DNA of 64,000 bases, taken from Candidatus Acetothermia bacterium. GTDB taxonomy: Bacteria > Bipolaricaulota > Bipolaricaulia > RBG-16-55-9 > DRXL01. The DNA is taken from positions 164-64,163 of the forward strand of contig JACOSB010000160.1 of NCBI GenBank assembly GCA_016179105.1, in the 5' to 3' direction. The position numbers were made by a program, and so were the translations under genes. A model generated the notes under the pieces. It saw only the letters and a program-made list of their open reading frames with translations. It ran no database searches and had not been told where the DNA came from. Positions 1-39,909 of this stretch are shown one piece after another. The first letter of the stretch is position 1. Each line of letters opens with the position of its first letter.

Positions 1-640
1 GAAGTTCAACGACCTGAACGGCAATGGCAAGCAGGACCCCGGCGAGCTCGGACTGCCTAACTGGATCTTCACAGTCCAACCAGGCAACCTTACCGGCATC
101 ACCAACCCTAAGGGGGAAATCTGCTTCACCGTGCCCGCTCCGGGGACGTACATAGTCACCGAGCAAGTGCAATCCGGGTGGATGCTGACGACGCCAAACC
201 CGCAAACGGTGACTGTCTTACCGGGCCAGACGGTGAACCTCAGCTTCGGGAATCGGCAAATCGGAAAGTGAGACCTGGCGATCATTAAGGAAGTCAAGCT
301 GATGATCAGCGGACAGCCAGCAACGTACGTCATTACCATCAGCAATAAAGGAGACGGAACCTGTAACCCCACAATCACGGTGACGGACATGTTGGGGTCG
401 GGCCTAAGCTTCAGCTCGGCAGGCGGGCCCGGGGTAGTGTGTGGAGCCGTTGCACAGACGGTCACCTGTACGAGCAATAACCCGCTCGGCCCCGGCCAGA
501 GCCTCCAGATCCAGATCAACGTCACTGTCAAGATTGATCCGGGGAAAGAAGCCAGGAACTGTGCCACTGTGAAGAATCCCAATGACGTCAATTTGACCAA
601 TAACGAAGCCTGTATCACGACCGTCGTAGGGAAAAAGTAA
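1..640 (+). pseudogene. Degenerate duplicate of the 3' end (DUF11-repeat C-terminus) of the 775..3849 surface-protein gene. It is interrupted by an in-frame TGA at 269-271 and a 6-nt deletion relative to the paralog.
   Basis: Frame-2 translation KFNDLNGNGKQDPGE...NRQIGK* parallels residues ~530-625 of the 1024-aa protein. Segment 302..640 (112 aa) is nearly identical at the nucleotide level to 3511..3849. The TGC codon of the paralog's GGKCDLAI is TGA here. Confidence 0.6.
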
Positions 641-653
641 AGGAGCAACGCAA

Positions 654-680
654 GGCGTCCGGGCCACGCGCCCGGACGCT
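654..680 (+). terminator. GC-rich hairpin 3' flank (GGCGTCCGGGC-cacgc-GCCCGGACGC), copy 1 of a conserved cassette 3' element. There is no U-tract.
   Basis: 10-bp perfect inverted repeat immediately after the stop of the duplicated gene fragment. Homologous elements follow the genes ending at 3849 and 6641. Confidence 0.45.
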
Positions 681-774
681 CGCCTTCGCAAACTATAGCC
701 GTAAATGCCCAACAGGAATTAGGAATATAGATGTCCAATAGGAATATAATGTTAAACAAGACAGGTGATCTACG

Positions 775-3700
775 ATGAAGTTCATCAAGCAGAACCCCGG
801 CCTGCTGAGGTCGGCGCGCAGCTGGGGAGCGCTGGGGTTGCTCCTGGCGCTCGTGGTGACGTTTGGGTCGTGGCAAGCTACTTCAATACCATCAACCTTC
901 ATTGTGGAAGGCACTGTGACTTACTCAGCGCAACCGCAACCTCCGACTCCTTGCGCTACACCCCCCTCTGGCATGGTCGCCTGGTATACGTTGGATGAGC
1001 AAAGTGGGGCTGGTGTTGTCTACGATGTAGCCGACTGGGACGATAACGGCAATACTTTGGATGCTAACGGCAGCACTACGACTATCAGCGCGACAGCGGG
1101 TCCTCCACCCGCAGGTCCTGTGCCCGTGACCTCACTTCCCTTAAGCTTACCGTCTGGCAAGGTCGGCAGTGCGCTCTATTTCTATGGGCCGTATGTGCAA
1201 GTGCCTCTGCCAGCAGCGGACTTGAACTTTGCGAAGGGCGATCTCAGCATAGACGCCTGGGTCTGGCCGGTCCAAGTCGGTCCAGGGCGCATTCAGCCTA
1301 TCGTGGATAGGCTCGACCTAAGCCAAAACAAGGGCTACGCCTTCTATGTGGAAGACGGCCTTCTGCGCTTCAGGATGGGGGACGGTACGTTTGCTGGGTC
1401 TGCGAGCACGGGAAGTGTCACCTATGGGACATGGAACCATGTAGCGGTCACAGTGAACAGAAGCGACCCCTTGAGCGGGGTTAAATTCTACATCAACGGG
1501 GCACTTGTCGGGTTCGGTCCGACAGTAACCGGGATCATTGACAATGCACAGGCTGTGTGGATCGGCAAGAGTAGGCTCAGCCCTCCAGCAGGCTTTGGTG
1601 AGATCGCCATTGACGAGCTGGAGGTCTTCAACCGTGTGCTCACACCAACGGAGATCAATGACATCTTCCAGGCCGACAAAGCGGGTAAGTGCAAATCCGA
1701 TCTGGGTGATGCACCGGATAGCACGAATCACGCCGCAGCGCAGATGGCTACTGGTTATGGGCCAACGGCCAACTTCCCCACGGTCTATGATCCGGGCGCG
1801 CCTCATGGTCCGATCCATCTGAATGCGACCGGCGATGCTTGGCTAGGGAAGGCTGTCACCTTAGAGGGAGAGGCCGATCAAGGATGGGACCAAGACCCGA
1901 CGAACAACATCCTACCTGGCCCCAACATCGCTAACAAGGATGGCGCAGACGACGGCGTGAGCCCGCTGCCCATTCTCCCTTTTTACTGCAGCACTCAGAC
2001 ACTCACCTATTCGGTAACCGTCATCGGCCCAACGAAACCCCGCTATGTGAACGTCTGGTTCGACTTCAAGCAGGATGGGGACTGGGATGATGTCATCCAA
2101 TGTCCAGGGACGCCACTATCTGCAAGAGAATGGGCTGTCCAGAACCACCTCATCAACTTAGGTCCCGGTTTTCACCCGGGTTTGGTGACGCCATCCTTTG
2201 TGGCCTTCCTAGACCCTAATAAGTCCATTTCGACGTGGATGCGGGTGACACTGACGGATGTGCCGGTCGCACCCGCACAGGCCGACGGCAGTGGCCCTCC
2301 TGGGGGATACCCGTTCGGTGAGACCGAGGACTACTTCTTGGGAAAGGACCCATCCGGTAGCGCCGAAATCTGCGTCTTCAAATTTGAAGACAAGAACGGG
2401 AATGGTATGTGGGACATTAACTTCAGCAACCCCAACGACCCCAACAACGAGCCTCTGCTATCTGGATGGACGTTTAACGTTAATCCAGGGCCCCCGAATC
2501 AGGTGACCACTGACCCTACAGGCAACATCTGTTTCAGTGTGCCCGCTCCGGGGACATACACGATCACGGAAGTGCCATTGCCCGGCTGGGTACCCACGTC
2601 GCTGAATCCGCAAACCCAGACGGTTTTCTCAACCACCCGCATGCACTTCTACTTCGGCAACCGGAGGCGAGAGGAAGTGAAGTGCGACCCGGCGATCAAG
2701 AAGACAGTTAACCCCAACCCCGTGCAAACCGGAGGGACGGTGACTGTCACGCTCGCCCTAACCGTGCCCGCAGGGCAAATCTGCGAAGCTACCACTGTTG
2801 TCGTGCAAGATCAATTGCCCCCCACGATGGTGTATCAGAACCTGTCGATGACTCCAAGCCCGCTTTCTGATTGGAGCTGTGTTACAACAATCCCGAGTTG
2901 TTACAATGTCATTCCACTGATAGGGCCTTACACAGCCATGTTCAGCTTCATGGCCAACGTGAACGCACCACCAGGAACTAGTATCACCAACTGCGCGACA
3001 GCAACCGTGTCAGGCCAGCTTATCAGTAAGTCATGCGTGCCTATCTCGGTCCTACCTAAAGCTGCCTGCGACCTGGCGATCAAGAAGTCCGTCACTCCCA
3101 ACCCCGTACAGAGCGGTCAACAGGTGACCTTTACCCTGACCGTGCAGAACGTCGGCACCGGACCGTGCCAAGGCATCACCACGGTGACGGATGGTCCACT
3201 CCCGTGGTTGCAGGTCACGAGCGTGGCGCAGGGCGGCAGCCAGTGGAATTGCTCGGTGGCGCCGCCAAATCCTGGAGCGACCATCAAGTGCACTTGGGAT
3301 GCCAGCATCCAGCCTGTACCGCCCGGGCCACTTCCCGCAATTACCATCACAGGGACTGTCATAGCATCGGCAACGGGTCAACTTCCAAACTGCGCGGCCG
3401 TCAGCAATCCGAACGACACCAACACGGCCAATAACCAGTCGTGCGTGATCGTGCAGGTCACAGGCGGAAAGTGCGACCTGGCGATCAGCAAGGAAGTCAA
3501 GCCGAATCCCTTAATCAGCGGACAGCCAGCAACGTACTTCATTACCGTCTTCAATAAGGGAGACGGAACCTGTAACCCCACAATCACGGTGACGGACACG
3601 TTGGCGTCGGGCCTAAGCTTCATCTCGGCAGGCGGGCCTGGGGTAGTGTGTGTACCGTTTGGACAGACGGTCACCTGCACGAGCAATAACCCGCTCGGCC

Positions 3701-3849
3701 CCGGCCAGAGCCTTCAGATCCAGATCAACGTCACGGTAAAGATTGAGCCGGGGAAAGAAGCGAGGAACTGTGCCACGGTGAAGAATCCGAACGATGTTAA
3801 CTTGACCAATAACGAAGCCTGTATTACGACCGTCGTAGGGAAAAAGTAA
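775..3849 (+). CDS. Secreted surface protein with a signal peptide, a LamG_3 / concanavalin-A-like jellyroll domain, a GEVED-like motif (PFGETEDYFLG) and about 3 DUF11 conserved-repeat domains.
   Basis: 1024-aa ORF with RBS AGGTGA 7 nt upstream. N-terminus MKFIKQNPGLLRSARSWGALGLLLALVV is signal-peptide-like. LamG_3 hallmarks: YFYGPYVQVP...DAWVWP...LLRFRMGDG...WNHVAVT...FYINGALVG...IDELEVFNRVLT. DUF11-like repeats: CDLAIKKSVTPNPVQSGQ..TFTLTVQNVGTGPC. Confidence 0.85.
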   Translation: MKFIKQNPGLLRSARSWGALGLLLALVVTFGSWQATSIPSTFIVEGTVTYSAQPQPPTPCATPPSGMVAWYTLDEQSGAGVVYDVADWDDNGNTLDANGSTTTISATAGPPPAGPVPVTSLPLSLPSGKVGSALYFYGPYVQVPLPAADLNFAKGDLSIDAWVWPVQVGPGRIQPIVDRLDLSQNKGYAFYVEDGLLRFRMGDGTFAGSASTGSVTYGTWNHVAVTVNRSDPLSGVKFYINGALVGFGPTVTGIIDNAQAVWIGKSRLSPPAGFGEIAIDELEVFNRVLTPTEINDIFQADKAGKCKSDLGDAPDSTNHAAAQMATGYGPTANFPTVYDPGAPHGPIHLNATGDAWLGKAVTLEGEADQGWDQDPTNNILPGPNIANKDGADDGVSPLPILPFYCSTQTLTYSVTVIGPTKPRYVNVWFDFKQDGDWDDVIQCPGTPLSAREWAVQNHLINLGPGFHPGLVTPSFVAFLDPNKSISTWMRVTLTDVPVAPAQADGSGPPGGYPFGETEDYFLGKDPSGSAEICVFKFEDKNGNGMWDINFSNPNDPNNEPLLSGWTFNVNPGPPNQVTTDPTGNICFSVPAPGTYTITEVPLPGWVPTSLNPQTQTVFSTTRMHFYFGNRRREEVKCDPAIKKTVNPNPVQTGGTVTVTLALTVPAGQICEATTVVVQDQLPPTMVYQNLSMTPSPLSDWSCVTTIPSCYNVIPLIGPYTAMFSFMANVNAPPGTSITNCATATVSGQLISKSCVPISVLPKAACDLAIKKSVTPNPVQSGQQVTFTLTVQNVGTGPCQGITTVTDGPLPWLQVTSVAQGGSQWNCSVAPPNPGATIKCTWDASIQPVPPGPLPAITITGTVIASATGQLPNCAAVSNPNDTNTANNQSCVIVQVTGGKCDLAISKEVKPNPLISGQPATYFITVFNKGDGTCNPTITVTDTLASGLSFISAGGPGVVCVPFGQTVTCTSNNPLGPGQSLQIQINVTVKIEPGKEARNCATVKNPNDVNLTNNEACITTVVGKK

Positions 3850-3861
3850 AGGAGCAACGCA

Positions 3862-3891
3862 GGGCGTCCGGGCCAACGCTCTCGGGCGCCC
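3862..3891 (+). terminator. GC-rich hairpin 3' flank (GGGCGTCCG...CGGGCGCCC), copy 2. It is followed by a second hairpin, CTCCTCG...CGAGGAG, in the convergent intergenic zone.
   Basis: Inverted repeats directly after the stop at 3849. The sequence taaaggagcaacgcagggcgtccgggcc matches the copy at 641-665. Confidence 0.45.
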
Positions 3892-3928
3892 TCCTCGGCT
3901 CTATCGGAGGACGAGGAGAAACTTCATC

Positions 3929-4192
3929 TCAAGCGGGCAGTGGCACTTCCTCCTGCTGCATTACCAACGAAGCGTAGTAGAGGGCGGCTTGGATGTCTTC
4001 TTCGGTCAGGGGAGGATATTCTTCAATGATCTCCCGATGGGTCATGCCGGCGGCCAGGGCGTCTAAGATGACGAAGACCGGAATGCGCGTGCCTTTGATA
4101 CAGGGCTTGCCGTGGCAGATCTGCGGGTCAACGGAGATACGCTCCAGAAGGTTGCTTGATTGCTGGTGTTTCATGGCGTTCACCCAGAGCAA
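3929..4192 (-). CDS. DUF433 family protein. This is antitoxin-like and usually pairs with DUF5615, but it is solitary here.
   Basis: 87-aa ORF with a family-typical HTH-like core (GKPCIKGTRIPVFVILDALAAGMTHREIIEEYP). No DUF5615 partner ORF is adjacent. Confidence 0.6.
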   Translation of the reverse strand: MLWVNAMKHQQSSNLLERISVDPQICHGKPCIKGTRIPVFVILDALAAGMTHREIIEEYPPLTEEDIQAALYYASLVMQQEEVPLPA

Positions 4193-4265
4193 TTTTAGAG
4201 CAAGTTGGCTACTGAAGCAAGCTCACGGGAGTATAGTAGTGCTGAAACGAACAGATCCACAAGAA

Positions 4266-4356
4266 GGGATCGAGAATGAAGTTCATCAAGAAGCATGCCG
4301 GCCTGTGGAGGTCGATGCGGAGTTGGGGAGCAGCTCGGGCGCCCTGCTTTTTATGA
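4266..4356 (+). pseudogene. Orphan remnant of the shared RBS plus signal-peptide 5' module (MKFIKKHAGLWRSMRSWGAA...), fused directly to a sequence resembling the cassette 3' hairpin half.
   Basis: ATG at 4276. The first ~20 codons are about 80% identical at the nucleotide level to the 5' ends of the genes at 775 and 6195. Homology breaks after GGGGAGC and continues as CTCGGGCGCCCTGC, which resembles the 3' flank at 3880-3893 and 6702-6712. Stop falls after 26 codons. Confidence 0.45.
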
Positions 4357-4788
4357 ATGCTTTTGCGCAAATAAGCGCTGGGGATCAACACGCTTGATCT
4401 CTGGAATGAGGTCCAAGTGTGCATCCGTCGAAATGATCTCGTGCAACTCGTTGTGGCGCATCACCGCCACATGAATCAGATCTCTTGCCGTAACCCCTTT
4501 GGGAGCATAGCGCTCAAAGAGCTGAACAGCCAGCCGGATGTCGGCCACCGCGATCGGATAGATCGTGGGCACCAGGTCCAGTAGGCTCTTGGCCATACTC
4601 GTCCCGATCGGCCAGCGACCGAGAGCGCCGTAGCGATACAAGATCTCTTGAATAATCTCGACATCTATGGCGGCGGCAAGCCGTCCCTCGGCGATCTCGG
4701 CCATAATCCAGGTACAAGGTGCTTTATAGAGATGTGCTTTGCCGGCGGCGTACATGGGCACGTTGACATCGAGAAAGAACTCAGCCAT
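4351..4788 (-). CDS. vapC: Type II toxin VapC (PIN-domain ribonuclease)
   Basis: 145 aa. N-terminal FLDVNVPMYAAG has the PIN acidic motif. It overlaps the upstream RHH antitoxin by 8 nt (ATGATGCC). Confidence 0.8.
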   Translation of the reverse strand: MAEFFLDVNVPMYAAGKAHLYKAPCTWIMAEIAEGRLAAAIDVEIIQEILYRYGALGRWPIGTSMAKSLLDLVPTIYPIAVADIRLAVQLFERYAPKGVTARDLIHVAVMRHNELHEIISTDAHLDLIPEIKRVDPQRLFAQKHS

Positions 4789-5062
4789 CTAAGGCACCTT
4801 TGGTAATTTCTTTTTCCATTTCTTCCCAGTCTGCCACCGGGGCTTTCAAACTGAGCAACTGTTGGAGGGCGGCCCGGCGCTGCTGCAGCACGGCCCCTTG
4901 GAAGCACGCCTCCACGATGGCCTCGCGGACGAGCACGCTGAGCGGTTTGCCGCGCTCTTGGGCGATCTTCAGAAGAAGTTCATACTGTTCTGTGCTGAGC
5001 ACGGTTTGGACGCGCTTGGTATAGACAGGGCTTGTGGCGTGTGTGGCGGCCAATGGCATCAC
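4781..5062 (-). CDS. vapB: Ribbon-helix-helix antitoxin (VapB/CopG-like), partner of vapC
   Basis: 93 aa. Shows the ...LSTEQYELLLKIAQERGKPLSVLVREAIVE... RHH signature and is translationally coupled to vapC. A palindromic candidate operator, GATAGTATC...GATACTAT, lies at 5066-5100 upstream. Confidence 0.75.
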   Translation of the reverse strand: MMPLAATHATSPVYTKRVQTVLSTEQYELLLKIAQERGKPLSVLVREAIVEACFQGAVLQQRRAALQQLLSLKAPVADWEEMEKEITKGALDG

Positions 5063-5179
5063 CTCAAGATAGTATCTTACAGATCGTATTTTAATGATAC
5101 TATATCCATAGTGCTGTTGCCACGGTGCCAGCGGGTGCGGGATGACTTTTTTAGCCCACCTCTTTGCTATTGTGAACGA

Positions 5180-5297
5180 TTAAGGATGAATGACGTGTGA
5201 GTTGAGTTCCTGCTTGAACAGGTCGAAATCGCGGTCATTGTGAAGCAGGGCATGATGGTGCAAATGAAAAAAGACGGTGGTGTCGACAAATCACCAT
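5180..5297 (-). pseudogene. Degraded vapC (PIN toxin) remnant downstream of the second vapB. It has a +1 frameshift after codon 3 and an internal deletion.
   Basis: ATG GTG ATT then an extra T. Removing it gives MVIVDTTVFFHLHHHALLHNDRDFDLFKQELNSHVIHP*. This shows the PIN N-terminal VDT motif and the C-terminal NDRDF motif, but only about 36 codons remain. Confidence 0.35.
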
Positions 5298-5300
5298 AGC

Positions 5301-5501
5301 TTAGCGGGCGCGGCCATCGCGCAGTTTCTCGAGATCGCCTTCCCAGGCGACCTTGCCACGCAAGCGGCGGACCTCGCTCTGCCCTTTCACCTGCACCAAC
5401 AACTGTAGAGCAGCTTCAATGACGGCGCGTTTGGTGGGCAGGCCGCTGGCGCGCAGGGCTTGGCGCATCAACTCATCGTCAATCACGACATTAGTGCGCA
5501 T
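5301..5501 (-). CDS. vapB: Type II antitoxin, VapB family (DUF2191-like, MRTNVVIDDELM N-terminus)
   Basis: 66 aa. The N-terminus MRTNVVIDDELMRQALRASG is characteristic of VapB-family antitoxins that pair with PIN toxins. The cognate toxin downstream is decayed. Confidence 0.7.
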   Translation of the reverse strand: MRTNVVIDDELMRQALRASGLPTKRAVIEAALQLLVQVKGQSEVRRLRGKVAWEGDLEKLRDGRAR

Positions 5502-5751
5502 GGGTGAGCACTCCTAAGAGTTTCGATGTGTATAGTATAGCAAAATCGTGTGTATTGGGCAATGGTCTTAGCTGGGCTCTTCTCGGTTTTTCCGGTTCCC
5601 ATGATATTTTGTTTCGCCACGCTATCGTCACGCGGGAAGTTTATACAAGGTTGTTAGACTCGCCTCCTTTTGGGCCATAGATAAGAGCGAAGTTCAGAGT
5701 CGCAGCTGAAGCACACGACAGAAGCAGCCACACAAAGAAAGAAAGGAGACG

Positions 5752-5964
5752 ATGACGATGAAATGGATACACCTCAAGAGCAAACACTGGATCGGGTCGG
5801 CGACGGTGATGATTCCTCAGGGAATGGCGGTGTGGCAGTTCAAGCAGCTGGTCGGTCTCCAGGAAGACAGCATTTTGACAGTGCCTGCGTTGGCGTTTCC
5901 TCTGCCAGATCAAGTGGTCCTGGACAAATATATCACGAATTTCGACACGGTCTATGTCGAGTAA
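5752..5964 (+). CDS. Small hypothetical protein (70 aa) in an AT-rich pocket
   Basis: Strong RBS GAAAGGAG 7-10 nt before ATG. No recognisable motif. It is flanked by imperfect direct repeats GGGCCATAGA...GAAGT at 5672 and 5973. Confidence 0.35.
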   Translation: MTMKWIHLKSKHWIGSATVMIPQGMAVWQFKQLVGLQEDSILTVPALAFPLPDQVVLDKYITNFDTVYVE

Positions 5965-6194
5965 TGCTGTTGGGGCCATAGACCGAAGTGAAACTCAATC
6001 ACCTTGAAGGAGGGTATCTTATGAAACTTTAGAAAGTATTCCCAATCGAAATCGAGCAATTACGCAGATTTGAAGCTCATTTCACGTTTTTGTCACGCTG
6101 GGGATTTAGACTAAAAGTGACCGACGGGTAGTCTTCCGGGCGGTTCAACGAAGTCAAAGCGAACGAACAGATCCAATAAAAGGAGAGATCTACG

Positions 6195-6641
6195 ATGAAG
6201 TTCATCCAGAAGAACGCCGGCCTGCTGAGGTCGGTGCGGAGTTGGGGAGTGCTGGGATTGGTCCTAGCGCTCGCGGTTGTCGCTAGTGTCTATGAACAGA
6301 CAGTAGCTCTTCCATATCCAGCAAACACTGTCAAGCTCTGGGAAGCAGCTTTGCCCCCATATACATATACTTTGCCCTCAAATAAATGTAATCTTGTCGC
6401 GCTGGTTGCCTATGATAACGGCATAACAATTGACCCGCGTTCAAACTATCTTGTGAAGTTCTATCAGATGCCCGGACATGTATATCAAGGCCAGTCTTTA
6501 AGCGGCACGAACGGTGAAGCCAACTTCTCTGTTCTACGCGGCGGTACTGTAGTCACTTTCTTCGTGGCGGAGGTTCAGTCGTGGATTGGGCTCCTCGTAA
6601 GCAACCAGATTGCTTGCGGAGCCCGTTATCCTGGAGACTGA
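6195..6641 (+). CDS. Small secreted protein (148 aa) carrying the shared signal-peptide 5' module
   Basis: MKFIQKNAGLLRSVRSWGVLGLVLALAVV is nearly identical to the N-terminus of the 775 gene. 20 nt of upstream sequence (gatctacgatgaagttcatc) are identical. It is followed by the conserved GC hairpin at 6685-6712. Confidence 0.7.
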   Translation: MKFIQKNAGLLRSVRSWGVLGLVLALAVVASVYEQTVALPYPANTVKLWEAALPPYTYTLPSNKCNLVALVAYDNGITIDPRSNYLVKFYQMPGHVYQGQSLSGTNGEANFSVLRGGTVVTFFVAEVQSWIGLLVSNQIACGARYPGD

Positions 6642-6684: not shown

Positions 6685-6712
6685 GGGCGTCCGGGCCGCG
6701 CGCTCGGGCGCC
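6685..6712 (+). terminator. GC-rich hairpin 3' flank, copy 3 (GGGCGTCCGGGCC gcg CGCTCGGGCGCC)
   Basis: Same element as at 654 and 3862. It lies between the stop at 6641 and the RBS-supported start at 6788. Confidence 0.4.
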
Positions 6713-31266: not shown

Positions 31267-34200
31267 ATGGCTGACCAATTTGAGAATCCTGACTCACATT
31301 CAAACTCTGATGAGCTGACAGCTCTACGACAGCAGGCCGAGCAATACGCAGCACAATTGCAAATCATCAATAGCATTCAACAAGGGCTTGCAAGCAAACT
31401 GGATATACAAGCCATTTATGATCTGGTTGGCGACAAGGTCTGCGAGATCTTCGATGCCCACGTGGTTCAAATTCTCTCATACGATCCGGCAGCGAATCTC
31501 ATGCATTACCCGTATTGTAATGAAATGGGCGACCGACATTCACACGACCCACGTCTGCCCGGCGGCTTTTCAGGCCACATACTCCAGACGCGCCAACCAC
31601 TCATGATCAACCAGAACCTGGTGGCGCGTTCAGCGGAACTCGGGAAAACCGTACCGTTATCCGGAGACTGGCCTAAATCTTATCTGGGGGTTCCTTTGCT
31701 CGTGGGTGATGAAGTTCGCGGTGTTCTCACTCTCCAAATCTTAGACCGCGAGAACGGCTTCAACGAATCTGACCTGCGCCTGCTTCAGACGCTCGCCAGT
31801 AGCATGAGCATGGCGCTCGAAAACGCGCGTCTCTTTGATGAAGTGCAAAATCGAAATGATGAGATCACTGATGCGTTAGAGCGAGAAACTGCAACGAGCG
31901 ATATTCTCAAAGTGATCGCCAACTCGCCCACCTACATTCAGCCTGTGCTCGATGTGATCGCTGAGCATTCGGCACGGTTATGTGCATCGGACGACGCTGT
32001 CATCGTGCTGGTGGAAGACAACTTTTTGAGGGTGTCCGCCCATTACGGCAGTATCCCCATCACACAAGTGGGTGAAGGGATTCCGTTGGATAAAGAGACT
32101 GTCGTCGGGCGAGCGATCCTGGAGGGTGGAACCTTTCAAACGATCCATGGCCAGAACGAGGCCGCACCCGACTATCCGGCCGGCGACGCAAACGCAAAAA
32201 AATTCGGCTATCGCATGACGTTCTCGACCCCGCTGATGCGGCAAGGCAAGGCAATCGGCGGCATCACCATTCGCCACATCGAACCAAAGCTACTGAGCGA
32301 TAAACAAGTCGAACTGGTCAAGACCTTTGCCGATCAAGCGGCCATTGCTGTCGAGAATGTGCGGCTCTTCAACGAGACCAAAGAAGCACTCGAACAACAG
32401 ACCGCTACGAGCGAAGTGCTCCGTGCCCTGAGTAGCTCTCAAACGGACTTGAAGTCTTTGTTGGAAGTCATTGCCGTGAACGCGGCTAAGGTCTGTGGCG
32501 CCGATGATGCTCACATCTACCGCGTTGAGGGCAACATGCTCAAAGAATGGACACACCGCGGGCCAATTCCAGGGTTAGAGGCGGGCGAATCCTTACCGCT
32601 CAACCGCAAGTCGTTGACGGGCCGCGCGATCGTGGATCGGCAAACTATCCATATCCACGATGCGGCTGCAGAATTGAACGAGGCCGAGTATCCGATCAGT
32701 GCCGCTCTTCAGCGACGATGGGGCACTCGGACGGTGCTATCTATTCCATTGCTCCGCGATGGAGAGCCGATCGGGGGCATTGCCATTCGCCGCAAAGTGG
32801 TGCAACCGTTTACGGAGAAGCAGATTGAGTTGCTCAAATCCTTCGCCGATCAGGCTGTGATTGCGATTGAGAATGTGCGTCTTTTTGATGAGACTCAGCG
32901 TCTGCTCAAAGACACTCAACAACACGCCGCCGAGCTCGCCATTATCAACAGCGTGCAAGAAGGGTTGGCGTCTAAGCTAGATTTCGAGGCAATCATTGAT
33001 CTCGTGGGTGACAAGATTCGTGAAATATTCGATGCGCAGAGCGTGGCCATTGGCAGGTACGATCACGTGAATGGTCTGGTCAACTATAGTTATGTGGTCC
33101 AAAAAGGACACCGAGTGCAATGGAGTCCGTCGCCTTTTGCGGGTATGAGCCATCATATGATTAACACTCGACGGACATTGGTCATCAATGAAAATGTTGC
33201 TCAACGAATGAAAGAAATTGGTGCCATCTTCCCAGATGAGTTTGATCTGCCGCGCTCTACAGTGTATGTACCGCTGCTTGTGGGAGAAACGATCACGGGT
33301 GTGATTAATATCGCTAATCTGGATCGCGAGCACGCCTTTAGCGAATCCGATGTGCGCCTGCTCCAAACGCTCGCCAACAGCATGAGCGTGGCGCTCGAAA
33401 ACGCGAGGCTCTTTAATGAGACTCAACAACGCAACGCCGAGCTTGCCATCCTCAACAGCGTGAGCGAAGCCATGTCGAAGACGCTCGATGTCAAGACCGT
33501 GACGAAGATCGTGGGCGACAAGGTGCAAAGTATCTTTGCCTCAGAAGCCGTGAGCATCCGCTTATATGATCCCGCCACCAACCTCATTCAGCGCGCCTAT
33601 GATTATGACCGCGGTTATGAAGACCTGACTGATACCTCGTTTCCCATGGGCCAAGGGCTGACCTCGAAAATCATCCTTTCCGGCAAGCCGCTCATGTTTG
33701 GCACAGAACAGGAATCATACAGCGCTGGCTCACTGAATGTGCCTTCCCAGAAGGGCGACGAAGCGACGCAATCCTATCTTGGCGTTCCCATTATCGTCAA
33801 TGATAAAGTGATAGGCACCGTTTCCATTCAAAGTTATAAACAACACGCCTATAACGAAAATCACTTGCGCCTCCTGCAAACGCTCTCGTCCAACATGGGC
33901 GTCGCCATCCAGAATGCACGTCTCTTTGAAGCCGAGAAGCAGCGCGCCGCTGAACTTGCGATCATCAACAGTGTGCAAGCAGGACTCGCGTCAAAACTCG
34001 ATATGCAAGCGATTTACGATTTGGTGGGCGACAAGATTCGCGAGATCTTCGACGCACAGGTAGTAACCATTCTCTCTTACGACCACACCAGCAATCTCTT
34101 GCACTTTCGCTACTCGATCGAAAAAGGCGAACGGCAAACCGCTGAACCTTCACCGCTCGGCAAAGGATTTGCCTCCCATATTTTTAGGACACGCGAGCCG

Positions 34201-37200
34201 TTGCTCATCAATCAAGATATTGAAAAGCGGCGCGCTGAATTTGGCGCGGTTGTCCCCATGGGCTCTCCTGCCAAATCCTATCTCGGCGTTCCTTTGATCG
34301 TCGGTGATGAAGCCAAAGCCGTCATCACCTTGCAAAACATTGATCGCGAGAACGCTTTCACCGAATCCGACCTGCGTCTCTTACAGACACTCGCCAACAG
34401 CATGAGCGTCGCCCTCGAAAACGCCCGTCTCTTCGACGAGACTCAGCGCCTGCTCAAAGAGACCGAACAGCGCAACGCGGAACTGGCAGTCATTAACAGT
34501 GTCCAAACTGCGCTCGCCGCTGAACTCAACATGCAAGGCATCTACGACGCGGTAGGCGACAAGATCCGTGAGATATTCAATCAGGCAGATATCAACATCC
34601 GTATCTATGACCCCAAGACAAATCTAGTTCACTATCCATACGCATACGAAAATGGGAAACGCATCGCGATTGATTCGCGCCCGTTACGCGAAACCGGCTT
34701 CAATGCTCATGTCCTCCGCACCCGCGAGACATTGGTCATCAACGAGAACATGGCGCAAGAAATAGTAAAGTATGGCAGCTCCATCATCCTAGGCACACAA
34801 CTGGAAAAATCGGCTATGTATGTGCCGCTCGTGGCAGGCGATCAAGCGCGCGGGTTAATTGAAATCGGCGATTATCAACGCGAACACGTCTTTAGCGAAT
34901 CAGATGTCCGTCTCCTGCAAACCCTCGCCACTGCAATGAGCGTCGCGCTGGAAAACGCACGTCTGTTCGATGAGACTCAGCGCCTGCTCAAAGAGACCGA
35001 ACAGCGCGCTGCCGAACTCGCCATCATCAACAGCGTGCAAGAAGGACTCGCATCAAAGCTCGATATGCAGGCGATTTACGATTTGGTGGGCGACAAGATT
35101 CGCGAGATTTTCGACGCACAAGCGGTAACGATCGCCACCTTTGATCTCGAAAAAGAGATGGGTTATCAGCGCTATAGCATCGAAAAGGGTCAGCGCTTTT
35201 ACTCCGAGCCGGCACGATACGGTAATATTGCCAAGCAACTGATCGCCACTCGCCAGCCCGTGCTTTACCAAACCCGCCAGCAACTCATCGCAACGGGTGT
35301 CGGCGTCGCTCCTGGGACGGAGCCATCCAAGTCCGCCGTGTATGTGCCGCTCGTCGTCGGCGATGTGGTGAAGGGCGCGATAAGTTTGCAAAACGTTGAT
35401 CGCGAGTACGCGTTCACCGAATCGGATGTGCGCCTATTACAAACCTTTGCCAACAGCATGAGCGTCGCCCTCGAAAACGCACGGCTCTTCGACGAGACCC
35501 AGCGCCGAGCGCAGGAAATGTCAGCACTGATCGAAGTAGGTCGTGACATCTCGGCAACGCTCGATCCGACGACAGTCTTGGAACGCATCGCACGTCACGC
35601 ACGCGATCTTTTGCAGGTCAGTGATTGTGCCGTCTTCTTACCCGATGAAACGGGGCAGGCGATGAAGGCCTTCGTCGCGCTTGGACCCATCGCTGCGCAA
35701 ATCAAAGCGATGACGATTCAATTCGGCGCGGGCATTATCGGCAGCATCTGGAAGACGGGAGCCGCCGAAGTCATCAACGATGCGAGCCAAGATCCGCGCG
35801 GCGTAAAGATCGCTGGGACTGAGGATAAATCTGATGAAAAACTGATGGTCGCGCCGTTGTTATCGGGTGATAAAGTGATCGGCTTAATGTCGGTCTGGAG
35901 ATCGGGCGGCGATCGTTTTTTCGAGGACGATCTAATATTCTTGATGGGCTTGGCTCGCCAAGCTACCATCGCCATTCAGAATGCACGTCTCTTCAATGAA
36001 ATCCAGGCGCGCAACCGTGACATCACCGAAGCCTTGGAACAACAAACCGCAACCAGCGAAATCCTGCGCGTCATCGCCAGTTCTCCGACAGACGTGCAAC
36101 CCGTGCTCGAAACGGTTGCGCGGCACGCAGTGAAACTGTGTGATGCGGTATTTTGCGGCGTGTATCGAGTGCAGAACGGAATAGTTTCTCTCGGGGCACA
36201 GTACAATTTGACGCCGGAGGTGGTTGAAGAACTCAACCGCGTACTGCCTGCACCGATCGAGAGCGCACCTAGTATCTCTGCTGAAGCGGTGCGTCGCCAA
36301 ACAATCATTCACATTGCAGACATCGAAAACGAACCCACCGTACCCTCGTGGACGCTTCGAGTCGCGCGGAAGCTAGGGTATAAGAGCATTGTTGCCATCC
36401 CAATGTTGCGGGAGGGTGAGGTCCTCGGTGCCATCACGGTCGCCAGACGCGAAGCAGGGAATTTCACGGATAAACAGATCGCTCTCCTGCAAACCTTCAC
36501 CAATCAAGCGGTCATCGCCATCGAAAATATACGACTATTCAATGAGGTGAAGAACCAGAGACAATTCTTGGAAGCAGTGATCGCCAACAGCCCTGCTGCG
36601 ATTGCGCTCATCGGAAGAGATGCAATAATCAGGGGATGGAATCTGGCTGCTGAAAAATTGTTCGGTTATACCGAAACAGAAGCCCTCGGCCGCAATATTG
36701 ACGATCTGATCGCCTATAGAGAAGAGGTGCGTTTCGAAGCCCTTCACTATACGAATCAAGCCCTCACCGAGAACCGATTCCATATTATCACGAAGCGTGT
36801 CCGTAGAGATGGTAGCTTCGTCGATGTGGAAATATCGGTCTTGCCCATCAACCCTGCCAATCTGAACGAGGGATTTGTTGTTATCTATCACGACATCACC
36901 GAACTCCAGCGCGCGCGCCAAGAAGCGATCGCGGCCAATGAAGCGAAGAGCGCCTTCTTGGCAACGATGAGCCACGAGATTCGCACTCCGATGAACGCCG
37001 TCATCGGAATGAGCGGCCTACTGATGGACACTGATCTCACCCGAGAACAGCACGAGTATGCCGAGACAATCCGCAACTCCAGCGATACGCTTTTAACTAT
37101 CATCAATGATATATTGGACTTCAGCAAGATCGAGGCCGGGAAGATGGAATTGGAGCATCAGCCCTTCGATGTGCGCGAGTGCGTTGAGTCGGCACTGGAC

Positions 37201-38517
37201 TTGGTCGCGGGGCGCGCCGTCGAGCGCGGACTCGATCTGGCGTATCTGATTGATGACGAGGTGCCCAGCGTCGTGCGCGGCGATGTCACGCGCGTGCGTC
37301 AGATTTTGCTCAACTTACTGAGCAACGGAATCAAGTTCACTGATCATGGCGAAGTAGTCGTTGAAGTGAAGCGCGGACAAGCTGCCAATGAGTTGCTCTT
37401 CTCGGTGCGCGATACCGGCATCGGCATCTCACCCGAGGGCATGAAGCGGCTCTTCCAGTCTTTTAGTCAAGCCGACTCGTCGACGACGCGCAAATACGGT
37501 GGTACGGGCTTAGGCTTGGCCATCAGCCGAAAACTTGCGGACATGATGGGCGGTACGATGTGGGCCGAGAGCAAGGGTGTGCCGGGCAAAGGGTCTACTT
37601 TCTTCTTCACGATTAAAGCAGAGGTGGCAAAGTCAATTGTGAGTAAATCGGTGCGCAATCTGAGCAGCCTGCAGCCCGAAGTCGAGGGCAAGCGCATTCT
37701 CATTGTGGACGACAACGCGACCAACGGTCGCATCTTGGAAATACAGACGAAGAAGTGGGGCATGACTCCACGAGTGGCAAAATCGCCCAAGCAAGCGCTC
37801 AAGATTGTGAAGACGAAGAAAAAATTTGATCTGGCAATTTTGGATATGCACATGCCCGAGATGGACGGCATGGCGCTCGCGAAAGCGCTGCGAAAATTGC
37901 CCAGTGCCAAGAAATTGCCTTTGATCTTACTCACGTCGTTGGGGCGTCAAGGAACCAAAGAAAAAGTTTCAGCATTTGCAGCGTATCTCACCAAGCCGGT
38001 CAAGCCCTCACAACTCTTTGATGCGCTGGCGAGCGTTTTTGCTGGCGCGAAAACCAAGCAGCGTAAAGCAACTTTATCAAAGATTAAGACAGCGAAACAA
38101 AAATTCGATCCAAAGATTGCCAAGCGGCATCCTTTGCGGATCTTGCTCGCCGAAGACAACGTCGTCAACCAGAAAGTCGCGCTGCGCATTTTGGATCAGA
38201 TGGGCTATCGTGCCGATGTGGCGTCGAATGGTCTGGAAGCGATCGAAGCCGTCGAGCGTCAGCATTATGATGTGATCTTGATGGACGTGCAGATGCCCGA
38301 AATGGATGGGCTTGAAGCGACGCGGCGCATTGTCGCACGCTGGAGTAAAAAGAAGCGTCCGCACATCGTCGCGATGACGGCAAATGCGATGCAGGGCGAC
38401 CGCGAGATGTGCCTCGCTGCGGGCATGAATGATTACATCACCAAGCCCATTCGAGTCGATGAACTAATCGGCGCTCTGAACAACGTCACTCCCCAAAAGA
38501 GGAGAAATAATTTATGA
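31267..38517 (+). CDS. Giant hybrid sensor histidine kinase with 10 tandem GAF domains, a PAS domain, HisKA, HATPase_c and two receiver domains
   Basis: 2416 aa. Ten GAF units are each bounded by L(E/Q)NARLF(D/N)E(T/V)Q linkers. HisKA: [23 protein letters not shown]. HATPase: [15 protein letters not shown]...[13 protein letters not shown]1: [10 protein letters not shown]...[13 protein letters not shown]2: [10 protein letters not shown]...[11 protein letters not shown]. Confidence 0.9.
31363..35520 (+). repeat. Intragenic array of near-identical ~150-200-nt repeats (GAF linker plus GAF N-terminus) with a ~0.6-kb period
   Basis: gagactcagcgcctgctcaaagagaccgaacagcg...atcatcaacag(c/t)gtgcaag...ctcgatatgcaagcgatttacgatttggtgggcgacaagattcgcgagat recurs at ~32880, 33960, 34440 and 34975 with over 85% identity. 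Confidence 0.8.
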
Positions 38518-38867
38518 GCGACAGTGCTATAGATTTATCTGTGTTTAACAATCTGAAAGAGATGGTCGGCGAGGATTTTATCGGCGAGCTGATTGATACG
38601 TTTCTTGACGAGGCTCCGCAATTGATTGCTTCGATGCAAAAAGCTCTTCCTAAAAATGATGTTGAGACGTTTCGCCGATCGGCTCATTCGCTTAAATCCA
38701 ACAGCGCGAGTTTTGGCGCGCACGCTTTATCCGACCAAGCCAAGGCGCTAGAAATGCTAGGACGAGCGGGCCAACTAAGCCAAGTCGGGGATAAGCTTGA
38801 GACTCTATCGGCTGAGTACAAAAAAGTAGAAGAAGTCTTGAAGAGATTGCGCCATGACTTCGAATAA
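38514..38867 (+). CDS. Histidine phosphotransfer (Hpt) protein
   Basis: 117 aa. FRRSAHSLKSNSASFGA is the Hpt phospho-His motif. The start overlaps the kinase stop (ATGA). Confidence 0.8.
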   Translation: MSDSAIDLSVFNNLKEMVGEDFIGELIDTFLDEAPQLIASMQKALPKNDVETFRRSAHSLKSNSASFGAHALSDQAKALEMLGRAGQLSQVGDKLETLSAEYKKVEEVLKRLRHDFE

Positions 38868-39909
38868 GATGCACGGGCCGGGACGATTATTAGTCGTCGA
38901 AGACAACAAGGTCAATCGCATTTTGCTTCTGCGCGGGCTGGAGCAACAGGGGCACGTGGTGACGGCTGTTGAAAACGGAAAACAAGCGTTGAAGCTCTTA
39001 CACAGCCAGCCTTTTGACATCGTTTTATTAGATATTGAGATGCCCGAAATGAATGGGTTCCAAGTCTTGGAAACGTGTCTGCAAGACACGCACCTGCGCG
39101 AGATCCCGATTATTATGACGTCGGCGATGGACGAGCTGGACAGCGTCGTCAAGTGCATTGAGATGGGAGCCGAAGACTATCTCACAAAGCCACTTAATAC
39201 AGTCTTGCTCCGGGCGCGAGTCAACGCGAGCCTTGAAAAGAAACGGTTGCGCGATCAGCAGCGCAAGCTCTTTGATACAGTAGCGACCAGCGAAGTCGCT
39301 GAAGAATTGATCAGCAAAGGATTTTCATTGGGCGGCAAACACGTGGACGCTTCGGTCATGTTCACGGACATTCGCTCTTTCACTTCGATTGCCGAATCGC
39401 AAGACCCCTCGGAGACAATGGAGTTGCTCAACACTTACTTTACGTTGATGTTCGAGCCCATCAAAGATCATGGTGGAATCGTCAACCAAATTGTCGGTGA
39501 TGAGATCATGGCCATTTTCGGTGCCCCGATTCCACGAGTCGATCATCGCGAGCAAGCGGTCTTTGCGGCGATCGAGATGCTCGAATTGTTAAAAGGCTTT
39601 AATCAAGAACAAGCGTTGCGCAATAGAGTACAAATTCAGATCGGTGTGGGGATTGCATCGGGTAGAGTTATTGCGGGATACACAGGTACCCAACAGCGCG
39701 CGATTTTCACTTGCATAGGGGATACGGTGAATGTGGCTTCGCGTATACAAGACCATACCAAAATTATTGGCCAGCCTCTTCTCATAAGCGAGAACACTCA
39801 GCAAAGCTTGCCCACGGCGCTTCACACCGAGCTATTGGACTCAATAGTCTTTAAGGGAAAGAGCCAACCCGTCTCAGTCTATAGCGTCAAGACGGAACCG
39901 GCGGATTAA
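38854..39909 (+). CDS. Response regulator with an N-terminal receiver domain and a C-terminal class III nucleotidyl cyclase (adenylate/guanylate cyclase, CHD) domain
   Basis: REC: LLVVEDNKVNR...LLDIEMPEMNG...KPL. Cyclase: VMFTDIRSFTSIAE...IVGDEIMAIFGAP...GIASGRVIAGYTG. It overlaps the Hpt gene by 14 nt. Confidence 0.85.
   Translation: MTSNKMHGPGRLLVVEDNKVNRILLLRGLEQQGHVVTAVENGKQALKLLHSQPFDIVLLDIEMPEMNGFQVLETCLQDTHLREIPIIMTSAMDELDSVVKCIEMGAEDYLTKPLNTVLLRARVNASLEKKRLRDQQRKLFDTVATSEVAEELISKGFSLGGKHVDASVMFTDIRSFTSIAESQDPSETMELLNTYFTLMFEPIKDHGGIVNQIVGDEIMAIFGAPIPRVDHREQAVFAAIEMLELLKGFNQEQALRNRVQIQIGVGIASGRVIAGYTGTQQRAIFTCIGDTVNVASRIQDHTKIIGQPLLISENTQQSLPTALHTELLDSIVFKGKSQPVSVYSVKTEPAD

Follow-up and report, generated by a model that had tools for sequence, protein, structure and literature searches.

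How a 26-codon open reading frame (ORF) with the start of a signal peptide (SP) came to lie against the 3′ end of a toxin gene is the question raised by positions 4276-4356 (plus strand) of the 64,000-nucleotide stretch of DNA analysed here, hereafter the window. The ORF encodes MKFIKKHAGLWRSMRSWGAARAPCFL and is convergent with the vapC ORF (4351-4788, minus strand), within which its last 6 nt lie, an overlap with the vapC stop that the initial annotation had described correctly. That annotation read the segment as an emptied cassette, a 5′ module fused to a 3′ module, adjacent to an inserted toxin–antitoxin (TA) module. We consider it highly probable that the stub, 4246-4356 with its leader, is the dead remnant of a secreted-protein gene and the scar of an internal deletion, that is, an ordinary pseudogene, because relatives hold a full-length gene at its position, in one case (contig L021) with the same SP and hairpin.

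The two parts of the stub come from the brackets of a family of secreted-protein genes, each opening with a 5′ untranslated region (5′UTR) and an SP of ~28 codons (M[KT]F[IV]xKxAGLLRSxRSWGVLGLLLALAV) and followed, shortly after the stop codon, by an 11-bp GC-rich hairpin. Intact SP modules head a 1024-aa DUF11/LamG/GEVED protein (775-860, plus strand; gene 775-3849) and, together with a type A 5′UTR, a 148-aa protein (6162-6280, plus strand; gene 6195-6641). Intact 3′ hairpins, all on the plus strand, follow both genes (3863-3890, with -30.9 kcal/mol and z -3.7 on the plus strand; 6686-6712, with -31.5 kcal/mol, z -2.6 on the plus strand and z +0.1 on the minus strand) and also a DUF11 gene that ends at 640 (654-679). 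A selenocysteine reading of the TGA at 269 was rejected, no SECIS-like fold being present. The hairpin consists of GGCGTCCGGGCC, a loop of 3-6 nt and CTCGGGCGCC, and spans 27 nt. REP-type dispersal was considered within the window, where the hairpin occurs only three times in 64 kb, always within the same 7 kb and always 3′ of SP-module or DUF11 genes. As plus-strand RNA, full hairpins reach -27 to -31.5 kcal/mol (z -2.6 to -3.7), with a weaker fold on the minus strand; the 11-bp stem is common to 10 copies from the window and relatives, and one covarying pair (U-A / U.G / C-G), together with a G.U pair conserved in nine of the ten, points to a sense-strand structure. These hairpins have the strong stem of an intrinsic terminator, but their 3′ flank (CCGCCCCA) is not U-rich, and a terminator scan called none of those in the window. 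Neither hairpin nor 5′UTR matched Rfam at gathering score or at E ≤1; the SP, the 148-aa protein and a 70-aa ORF at 5752 were all unmatched in Pfam and NCBIfam, and an exact-protein look-up with the 6195 protein returned no match. Another module remnant, even shorter than the stub, lies at 5970-6032, with a 5′UTR like that of contig L004 followed by ATGAAACTTTAG.

The 5′ half of the stub is readily recognised as a member of this family. An 18-mer from the ORF start, with ≤1 mismatch allowed, occurs in the window only at 775, 4276 and 6195 (expected 0.07). By BLAST, the stub is 79.5% identical to the 775 copy over 83 nt and 83% identical to the 6195 copy over 88 nt, which bears out, for 19 codons, the earlier estimate of ~80% identity to the first ~20 codons of both genes. 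About 30 nt of 5′UTR (4246-4275, plus strand; GAAACGAACAGATCCACAAGAAGGGATCGAGA) fall within the similarity; this remnant is of type A, was aligned with 16 other copies and, over 4246-4267, is 86% identical to 6162-6183. The first 19 codons of the SP module follow (4276-4331, plus strand; MKFIKKHAGLWRSMRSWGA), and the hydrophobic core that is present in every intact copy is missing. Nucleotide identity of this 5′ half to at least 15 intact copies is 79-85% over 55-88 nt, and the stub is the most divergent of the type A copies (83% to the 6195 copy, compared with 94.5% between the 6195 copy and that of contig L010). In an alignment of 17 copies the stub departs after GGGGAGC (4331), whereas the others stay conserved to about nucleotide 85 of the coding region, through the hydrophobic core; BLAST matches from 12 related loci likewise all end at 4330-4340. 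Because the hydrophobic core is absent, the product cannot serve as a signal peptide. In annotation, 4276-4356 should be a pseudogene fragment rather than a 26-aa protein.

Beyond this point the sequence turns into that of the hairpin. The 15-mer beside the vapC end, GCAGGGCGCCCGAGC, corresponds to the second (3′) arm of the hairpin with its 3′ flank (4333-4347, plus strand; GCTCGGGCGCCCTGC), the first arm and the loop being absent, and the vapC stop codon lies 3 nt from it; codons 20-26 of the stub are read from this hairpin-derived sequence and the vapC 3′ end. Exact matches to the 11-mer CTCGGGCGCCC number three in the 64 kb: two belong to the 3′ arms of the 3863-3890 and 6686-6712 hairpins, and the third is at 4334-4344. 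With the hairpin regions, positions 4331-4350 have a 12-mer exactly in common and agree at 14/15 positions, and 4333-4347 is identical at 14 of 15 positions to the hairpin flank of L021 (GCTCGGACGCCCTGC). The resemblance to the second hairpin arm, which had been proposed from the letters, is beyond chance (P ~1e-4 to 1e-3): in 30,000 trials on the 20-nt segment between the clear SP similarity and the vapC stop, matches of this quality arose in ~1e-4 of random genomic 20-mers and in 3e-4 to 8e-4 of shuffles of the segment. The half hairpin is without stable structure, since shuffled sequences fold at least as well as the junction does (z +1.5, compared with z -2.6 to -3.7 for intact hairpins). 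A terminator reading of the junction (GCAG..CTGC, then TTTTT) was rejected for the same poor fold and because the terminator scan did not call it.

The junction reads GGGGAGC-A-GCTCGGGCGCCCTGC, which can also be written GGGGAGC-(A)-GCTCGGGCGCC. Intact SP copies read GGGGAGCGCTGGGG and hairpins read GCGCGCTCGGGCGCCC, with GCGCT(G/C)GGG common to both, and joining SP sequence broken as GAGCGCT/GGGG to hairpin sequence broken as GCGCGCT/CGGGCGCC predicts GGGGAGCGCTCGGGCGCC, which is the observed junction minus one A. The two endpoints resemble each other (SP ..GAGCGCTGGGG.., hairpin ..GCGCGCTCGGG..) and form an imperfect microhomology (GCGCTGGGG / GCGCTCGGG), which 4333-4339 overlap. The abrupt end of similarity originally noted is therefore upheld as a departure after 4331 in the 17-copy alignment, but it is blurred by this microhomology, as seven of the next nine nucleotides fit an SP reading and a hairpin reading alike. 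An independent Logan assembly (contig L001) is 100% identical over 3832-5679, across both junctions, so the stub region is not an assembly artefact.

Comparison with relatives was anchored on the DUF433 antitoxin-like gene (3929-4192, minus strand; Pfam DUF433, E 3.5e-27), which is divergent from the stub, and syntenic loci were taken as the contigs of proteins 85-93% identical to the DUF433 protein of the window. A full DUF5615 toxin gene of 112-117 aa follows in all of these homologues. A check proposed with the initial annotation, for a full-length gene at the stub's position in relatives, proved positive: every relative with readable DNA has a full-length secreted-protein gene divergent from DUF433, with 405 aa in L021, 366 aa in five contigs (L013, L014, L017, L018 and L019), 151 aa in L022 and at least 112 aa in L024. 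The 366-aa protein is also encoded in L003, there beside other genes. The closest syntenic locus is L021, where the 405-aa gene has the SP module (MLFVQKQNADLLKSARSWGALGL...) and ends 45 nt before a full hairpin (GGCGTCCGGGCCGTGCGCTCGGACGCC), compared with 19 codons and half a hairpin in the window. Window and L021 are colinear over the hairpin and the DUF5615 3′ end (3861-3912, 83%), the DUF5615 5′ end, DUF433 and 30 nt upstream of it (3912-4222, 83%) and the SP module (4288-4340, 79%); ~390 nt of leader in L021 compare with 65 nt in the window. Because hairpins and SP modules are repeated elements, strict orthology is not the only conceivable source of this colinearity, which TA insertion into similar intergenic contexts might instead have produced. 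The mature part of the 366- and 405-aa proteins left no trace detectable by tblastn anywhere in the 64-kb window. Genes that lie downstream of the 366-aa gene in L013 and L003 (for an S8 peptidase and 252-aa, 142-aa and 2TM proteins) recur in the window at 8.7-12.4 kb.

Apart from an identical copy of the same strain, the stub sequence itself was not found elsewhere. A codon-degenerate pattern for the module, run against species-representative genomes, returned only contig L002, 99.7% identical to the window. A 2.5-kb contig 99.7% identical to the window has been deposited as a ‘Nitrospirae bacterium’ groundwater MAG. No genome was found with the exact pre-deletion allele, in which a type A 5′UTR, full gene and full hairpin would be followed by vapC.

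These observations add up to the features by which pseudogenes are recognised, namely 5′ homology, an ORF that is too short and whose missing part is absent, an intact gene in relatives and no artefact. Both halves of the stub are homologous to known modules and colinear with an intact locus, the mature coding sequence is absent and the folding of the hairpin is lost. We infer that a secreted-protein gene was once divergent from the DUF433 antitoxin gene, as it still is in relatives, and that a single illegitimate deletion, of ~1.2 kb by the measure of L021, would have removed the gene body. Its endpoints would lie after SP codon 19 and, within the hairpin of the gene itself, in the loop or the 3′ arm, and the remaining reading frame would then run out of the scar to a stop codon overlapping the vapC end. 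Replication slippage or microhomology-mediated joining may have produced the deletion, perhaps with help from the hairpin; a strong hairpin at an endpoint is a classical context for slippage deletions. A single event, and any particular order of the deletion relative to the arrival of vapBC, are likewise presumptive. The parent gene may have been another member of the array than the orthologue of the 405-aa gene, because the 5′UTR of the stub is of type A and the leader of L021 is of type B, and more than one deletion may have occurred. Two observations weigh against the stub being a deletion scar: the stretch attributed to the hairpin is short, with 15 nt of which seven could be SP, and the extra A means that the microhomology model is not an exact fit.

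An alternative interpretation is that insertion of vapBC truncated the gene without any fusion to a hairpin, in which case the 15 nt after GGGGAGC would be diverged SP sequence with a small indel and their likeness to the hairpin coincidental. MAFFT can fit 4333-4350 to the SP h-region by opening a gap of 9 nt, a 1-nt gap suffices to align GAGCAGCTCGGGC to GAGC-GCTGGGGC of L021, vapC starts 3 nt after the segment, and the lack of close relatives of vapBC is what a recent arrival would show. We nevertheless consider truncation by insertion unlikely because SP identity after the gap is only ~10/17, compared with 14/15 and an exact 12-mer for the hairpin arm and flank, because the 8 nt following GGG match the hairpin flank at 7/8 positions but the SP at only 2-3/8, and because the remainder of the gene is absent both beyond the TA genes and elsewhere in the window.

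The TA genes at issue are a PIN/VapC toxin gene (4351-4788, minus strand) and a ribbon-helix-helix antitoxin gene (4781-5062, minus strand), which overlap by 8 nt. Their Pfam matches, to PIN and RHH_5 respectively, are weak and below gathering score, and NCBI names a protein identical to the toxin a VapC family toxin; the pair (4351-5062) appears intact and has the features of a type II TA system of the VapBC kind. Of 456 vapC homologues at E ≤1e-25, most carry a precomputed PF01850 match; apart from an identical contig, the only one returned by an exact VapC look-up, the closest are ≤70% identical and come from other phyla and unrelated contexts, and no hairpin-like sequence was seen downstream of the best vapC relatives. 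Since close relatives of vapBC are absent from the sampled genomes, its pattern fits a recent acquisition in this lineage, and insertion at this exact spot is plausible. Thus the adjacency to a TA module reported initially is confirmed, and its description as inserted is no more than plausible, given distant homologues in unrelated contexts.

A second alternative is that the stub is a functional small element, whose retained promoter, ribosome-binding site and start codon would yield either a 26-aa peptide or an antisense transcript reaching into the vapC 3′ end and modulating the toxin. Consistent with such a role, the start codon and a recognisable ribosome-binding site are kept, the 26 codons are open, the ORF is convergent with vapC with a 6-nt overlap, and 4329-4351 contains a weak stem with TTTTT after it. 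A function is nonetheless very improbable: the Shine-Dalgarno sequence is weakened to AAGGGA from the AAGGAG of intact copies, the hydrophobic core is lost, and all five codon differences from the 6195 copy are non-synonymous with none synonymous (only 19 codons were compared). Moreover, the sequence was recovered from one strain only, the junction neither folds better than shuffles nor is called by the terminator scan, and similar stubs in relatives carry different tails.

Site-specific excision of a cassette, integron-like or vsp/vpma-like, with the SP module and the hairpin as recombination sites for a recombinase acting precisely, would account for unrelated genes sharing conserved 5′ and 3′ brackets, for gene content that varies among relatives at equivalent positions and for interspersed TA modules, and a serine recombinase gene does lie 4 kb from the array in L010, but we regard excision as extremely improbable because integrase, recombinase and transposase domains are absent from the sizeable ORFs of the 64-kb window, there is no att-like site, the 27-nt hairpin has neither attC-type R/L core sites (GTTRRRY) nor a match in Rfam or to another family, the junction falls within the coding region and the hairpin loop rather than at a module boundary, and other scars (L003, L027) break elsewhere. 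What survives of the emptied cassette is accordingly the loss of a gene between its 5′ and 3′ modules, as the full gene of L021 indicates, and not its excision by a recombinase, none having been found in the window and the junctions lying inside the modules.

The internal deletion that we favour for the stub is one of three in 1.5 kb of the window, two of which inactivate toxins and spare the antitoxins. Next to the DUF433 gene, the DUF5615 toxin is reduced to a remnant (3901-3927, minus strand) that reads MKFLLVLR and then stops, in which the first 5 codons are fused in frame to the last 3 and the stop, ~326 nt having been deleted relative to L021. The PIN partner of VapB at 5301-5501 lacks 278 nt by comparison with an 82%-identical pair in L013 and is also frameshifted. 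Domains of recombinases, integrases or transposases were found neither in window ORFs of ≥150 aa nor in the smaller ORFs of 1-9 kb; the remaining genes of the window include dnaN, tmk, lspA, dnaB, bamA, ompH, ABC transporters and a 2416-aa GAF-rich histidine kinase. The stub itself is of little importance, except as a marker of rapid turnover of the locus by deletion. Only 3-10 nt separate the end of either toxin gene from a hairpin flank, and DUF5615 also abuts a hairpin in L021, L022 and L023, though the upstream genes there are unrelated; TA modules sitting against hairpins merit attention.

More worthy of study than the stub is the lineage-restricted and undescribed family that it came from, with its SP conserved at the nucleotide level and its 3′ hairpin. 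Scanning JGI metagenomes with a degenerate pattern, together with an exhaustive profile search, placed the SP module at the head of at least 48 cluster representatives, mutually <50% identical and 56 to 1878 aa long, many of them very large DUF11/LamG/GEVED surface proteins; SP-module genes in L005-L012 encode 124 to >1300 aa. The type A 5′UTR (GAACGAACAGATCCAATAAAAGGAGAGATCTACG) is found in the stub, the 6195 gene and L010, and in tandem arrays directly follows the hairpin of the previous gene (L010, with a related variant in L003), while type B is a long leader ending in CATCACCACGAGGAGGGTGATTCAG (L003, L005-L009 and L021). Codon positions 1, 2 and 3 of the SP module vary to about the same extent (entropies 0.39, 0.27 and 0.48), which places its conservation at the nucleotide level; recent common origin, gene conversion or RNA-level constraint could each be responsible. 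A search of the literature for Acetothermia and signal peptides gave no relevant result. Questions of interest are what RSxRSWG does when a diderm secretes or sorts proteins, and whether mRNA 3′ ends are defined by the hairpin.

Relatives carry comparable scars, with tails and breakpoints that differ. At L003 10076-10290 an SP module (99.8% identical to the full gene in L006) runs directly into the final 35 nt of a coding region. From those 35 nt through the hairpin and the following gene, the sequence matches L008 at 100% identity; missing from the scar are the 473 nt that make up the body of the 203-aa gene of L008. At L027 5098-5250 a decayed SP is followed ~70 nt on by a hairpin, an arrangement seen on nine contigs, and P0262 and P0276 are further rearranged copies. 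A broader proposal, tentative and rather unlikely as it stands, is that the brackets may be portable homology arms, by which this Acetothermia-like lineage would have its secreted and surface genes swapped, deleted and reassorted within arrays to give a recombination-driven variable secretome; stubs would then be by-products, and TA modules at hairpin flanks would stabilise the arrays. Compatible with this proposal are the equal variation at the three codon positions, the different genes found between the same brackets, the mosaic junctions and the abutment of both toxin genes on a hairpin flank.

Several known systems resemble parts of this locus. Mycoplasma vsp/vpma/vlp surface lipoproteins have a conserved 5′UTR and signal peptide before variable mature regions (PMC2268961). 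Like them, the SP family has clustered genes that vary between strains, with 5′UTR and SP conserved at the nucleotide level; unlike them, it is without an adjacent Xer-type recombinase, each gene has its own ribosome-binding site and many a promoter-like leader, and a 3′ hairpin is present. Neither the window copies nor most relatives have a lipobox Cys after the h-region, and as regards inversion or phase switching, all module copies have the same orientation and inverted repeats of the module were not found in the window. Integron cassette arrays resemble this array in that unrelated ORFs stand in series, with a conserved imperfect hairpin after each one, and in the interspersion of TA modules that is seen in chromosomal integrons. 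Integron attC sites typically span 57-141 nt and have R′′-L′′...L′-R′ core sites (R′ = GTTRRRY); the array differs in having neither IntI nor an attC core (GTTRRRY is absent from the hairpin and its flanks), in having its own 5′ expression and secretion module and in its much shorter hairpin of 27 nt, which is more stable as sense RNA, with its conserved G.U pair.

The SP module is also reminiscent of the YSIRK-G/S and KxYKxGKxW signal peptides, which share with it a long n-region, a basic/aromatic motif (here RSxRSWG) before the hydrophobic core and occurrence on many otherwise unrelated large surface proteins of one lineage. Their Pfam and NCBIfam models did not match the SP at E ≤1, and the host here differs in being a diderm, as BamA and OmpH in the window indicate. 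The neighbourhood as a whole resembles decaying type II TA loci, with an intact DUF433 beside an 8-codon DUF5615 stub and an intact VapB beside a PIN gene that lacks 278 nt, although a third pair, RHH-PIN, is apparently intact and the 26-codon stub is itself no TA component. The stub most closely parallels bacterial internal-deletion pseudogenes, a class linked to deletional bias and to deletions at palindromes and between short direct repeats, in which the 5′ and extreme 3′ ends are kept and the body is lost, a short imperfect repeat marks the junction, one endpoint lies in a hairpin, neighbours carry deletions of the same style and relatives hold an intact gene at the equivalent position; nothing essential separates the two, the only oddity, and the one that made the scar recognisable from the letters alone, being that both of the ends kept here are recognisable repeated modules.

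The lineage-restricted signal-peptide (SP) module M[KT]F[IV]xKxAGLLRSxRSWGVLGLLLALAV forms the N-terminus of at least 48 proteins, which are dissimilar to one another and 56-1878 aa long; the module was found at 775-860 and 6195-6280 in the window and in the related contigs L003, L005-L012, L021 and L027. The module is conserved at the nucleotide level, all codon positions varying equally, is accompanied by one of two alternative types of 5'UTR, and had no match among Pfam or NCBIfam models. Within the 26-codon orphan ORF, the segment KKHAGLWRS (4288-4311) shares a His and a Trp substitution with a decayed module (P0281, KHAGLWRR; L027 5098-5140), which lies at an unrelated locus in a different metagenome; neither substitution was seen in any of the ~48 full-length module proteins. 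An array of three module genes in L010 has a TGA after SP codon 20 of its third gene (1-200, minus strand); the sequence of that gene becomes unrelated ~100 nt before the contig end, so a repeated or mobile element may have interrupted it.

Module-bearing genes are followed, just 3' of their stop codons, by a conserved hairpin with a GC-rich 11-bp stem, in which one pair covaries and a G.U pair is conserved. Copies lie at 654-679, 3863-3890 and 6686-6712 in the window, at 10257 in L003, and in L006, L007, L008, L010 and L021. The hairpin has no U tract, its 3' flank being CCGCCCCA, and a comparison with Rfam returned no match; in tandem arrays, the 5'UTR of the next gene begins 15-20 nt after it.

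A second module-gene remnant, shorter than the orphan, occupies 5970-6032 (plus strand), where a 5'UTR matching that of a gene in L004 (TTGGGGCCATAGACCGAAGTGAAACTCAATCACC..AGGAGG) is followed by the three codons ATGAAACTTTAG, after which comes the 6195 gene's promoter-like region. Around this remnant, ~455 nt present in the window are absent from L004, and a 70-aa ORF within that stretch (5752-5964) had no family match. Promoter-like motifs, GGTTGTTAGA-N14-TTTTGGGCCATAGA and TCATTTCACGTTTTTGTCACGC, are conserved upstream of module genes or arrays in several genomes (window 5660-5692 and 6078-6101; L003 9578-9800; L004 156-235; L013; L021). A BTAD/AAA/TPR regulator gene adjoins the module arrays in L003 and L010.

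The DUF11-repeat gene in frame 2..640 (plus strand) is open except for an in-frame TGA at 269-271, which aligns with a Cys codon (TGC, 3472-3474) where the 775 gene has a paralogous repeat of 90% identity, and which is also present in an independent metagenome-assembled genome (MAG) contig, L002. A search for a SECIS-like fold serving this TGA found none (z -0.6), and the gene is either a nonsense pseudogene or one of a Cys/Sec pair. L002 (JACPZN010000218.1) is 99.7% identical to window 177-2637 and was deposited as a 'Nitrospirae bacterium' MAG, whereas the window's proteins are recorded as those of a 'Candidatus Acetothermia bacterium'; probably either one bin or one label is in error. The window also encodes a 2416-aa hybrid histidine kinase (31267-38517, plus strand) with ~10 GAF domains, one PAS domain, HisKA/HATPase domains and a pair of receiver domains; after it comes a gene (38854-39909) for a receiver-adenylate/guanylate cyclase.

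In the window and three relatives, the 3' ends of toxin-antitoxin toxin genes lie within 3-12 nt of hairpin 3' flanks (window 3891-3901 and 4347-4351; L021 2322-2334; L022; L023), and the genes to which these hairpins belong are unrelated. The abutment could reflect a shared bidirectional terminator, a single old insertion followed by turnover of the neighbours, or insertion targeted to the hairpin, each of which is possible. At 3901-3927 (minus strand), a DUF5615 toxin remnant persists as an in-frame eight-codon stub (MKFLLVLR*) composed of the first five and last three codons of the gene, which in relatives encodes 112-117 aa at full length; its partner, DUF433, is intact. Compared with the 82%-identical VapB-PIN pair of L013, a relative carrying DUF433, the PIN toxin gene remnant at 5176-5297 (minus strand) has an internal deletion of 278 nt and an insertion of 1 nt, which leave its partner VapB (5301-5501) as an orphan antitoxin.
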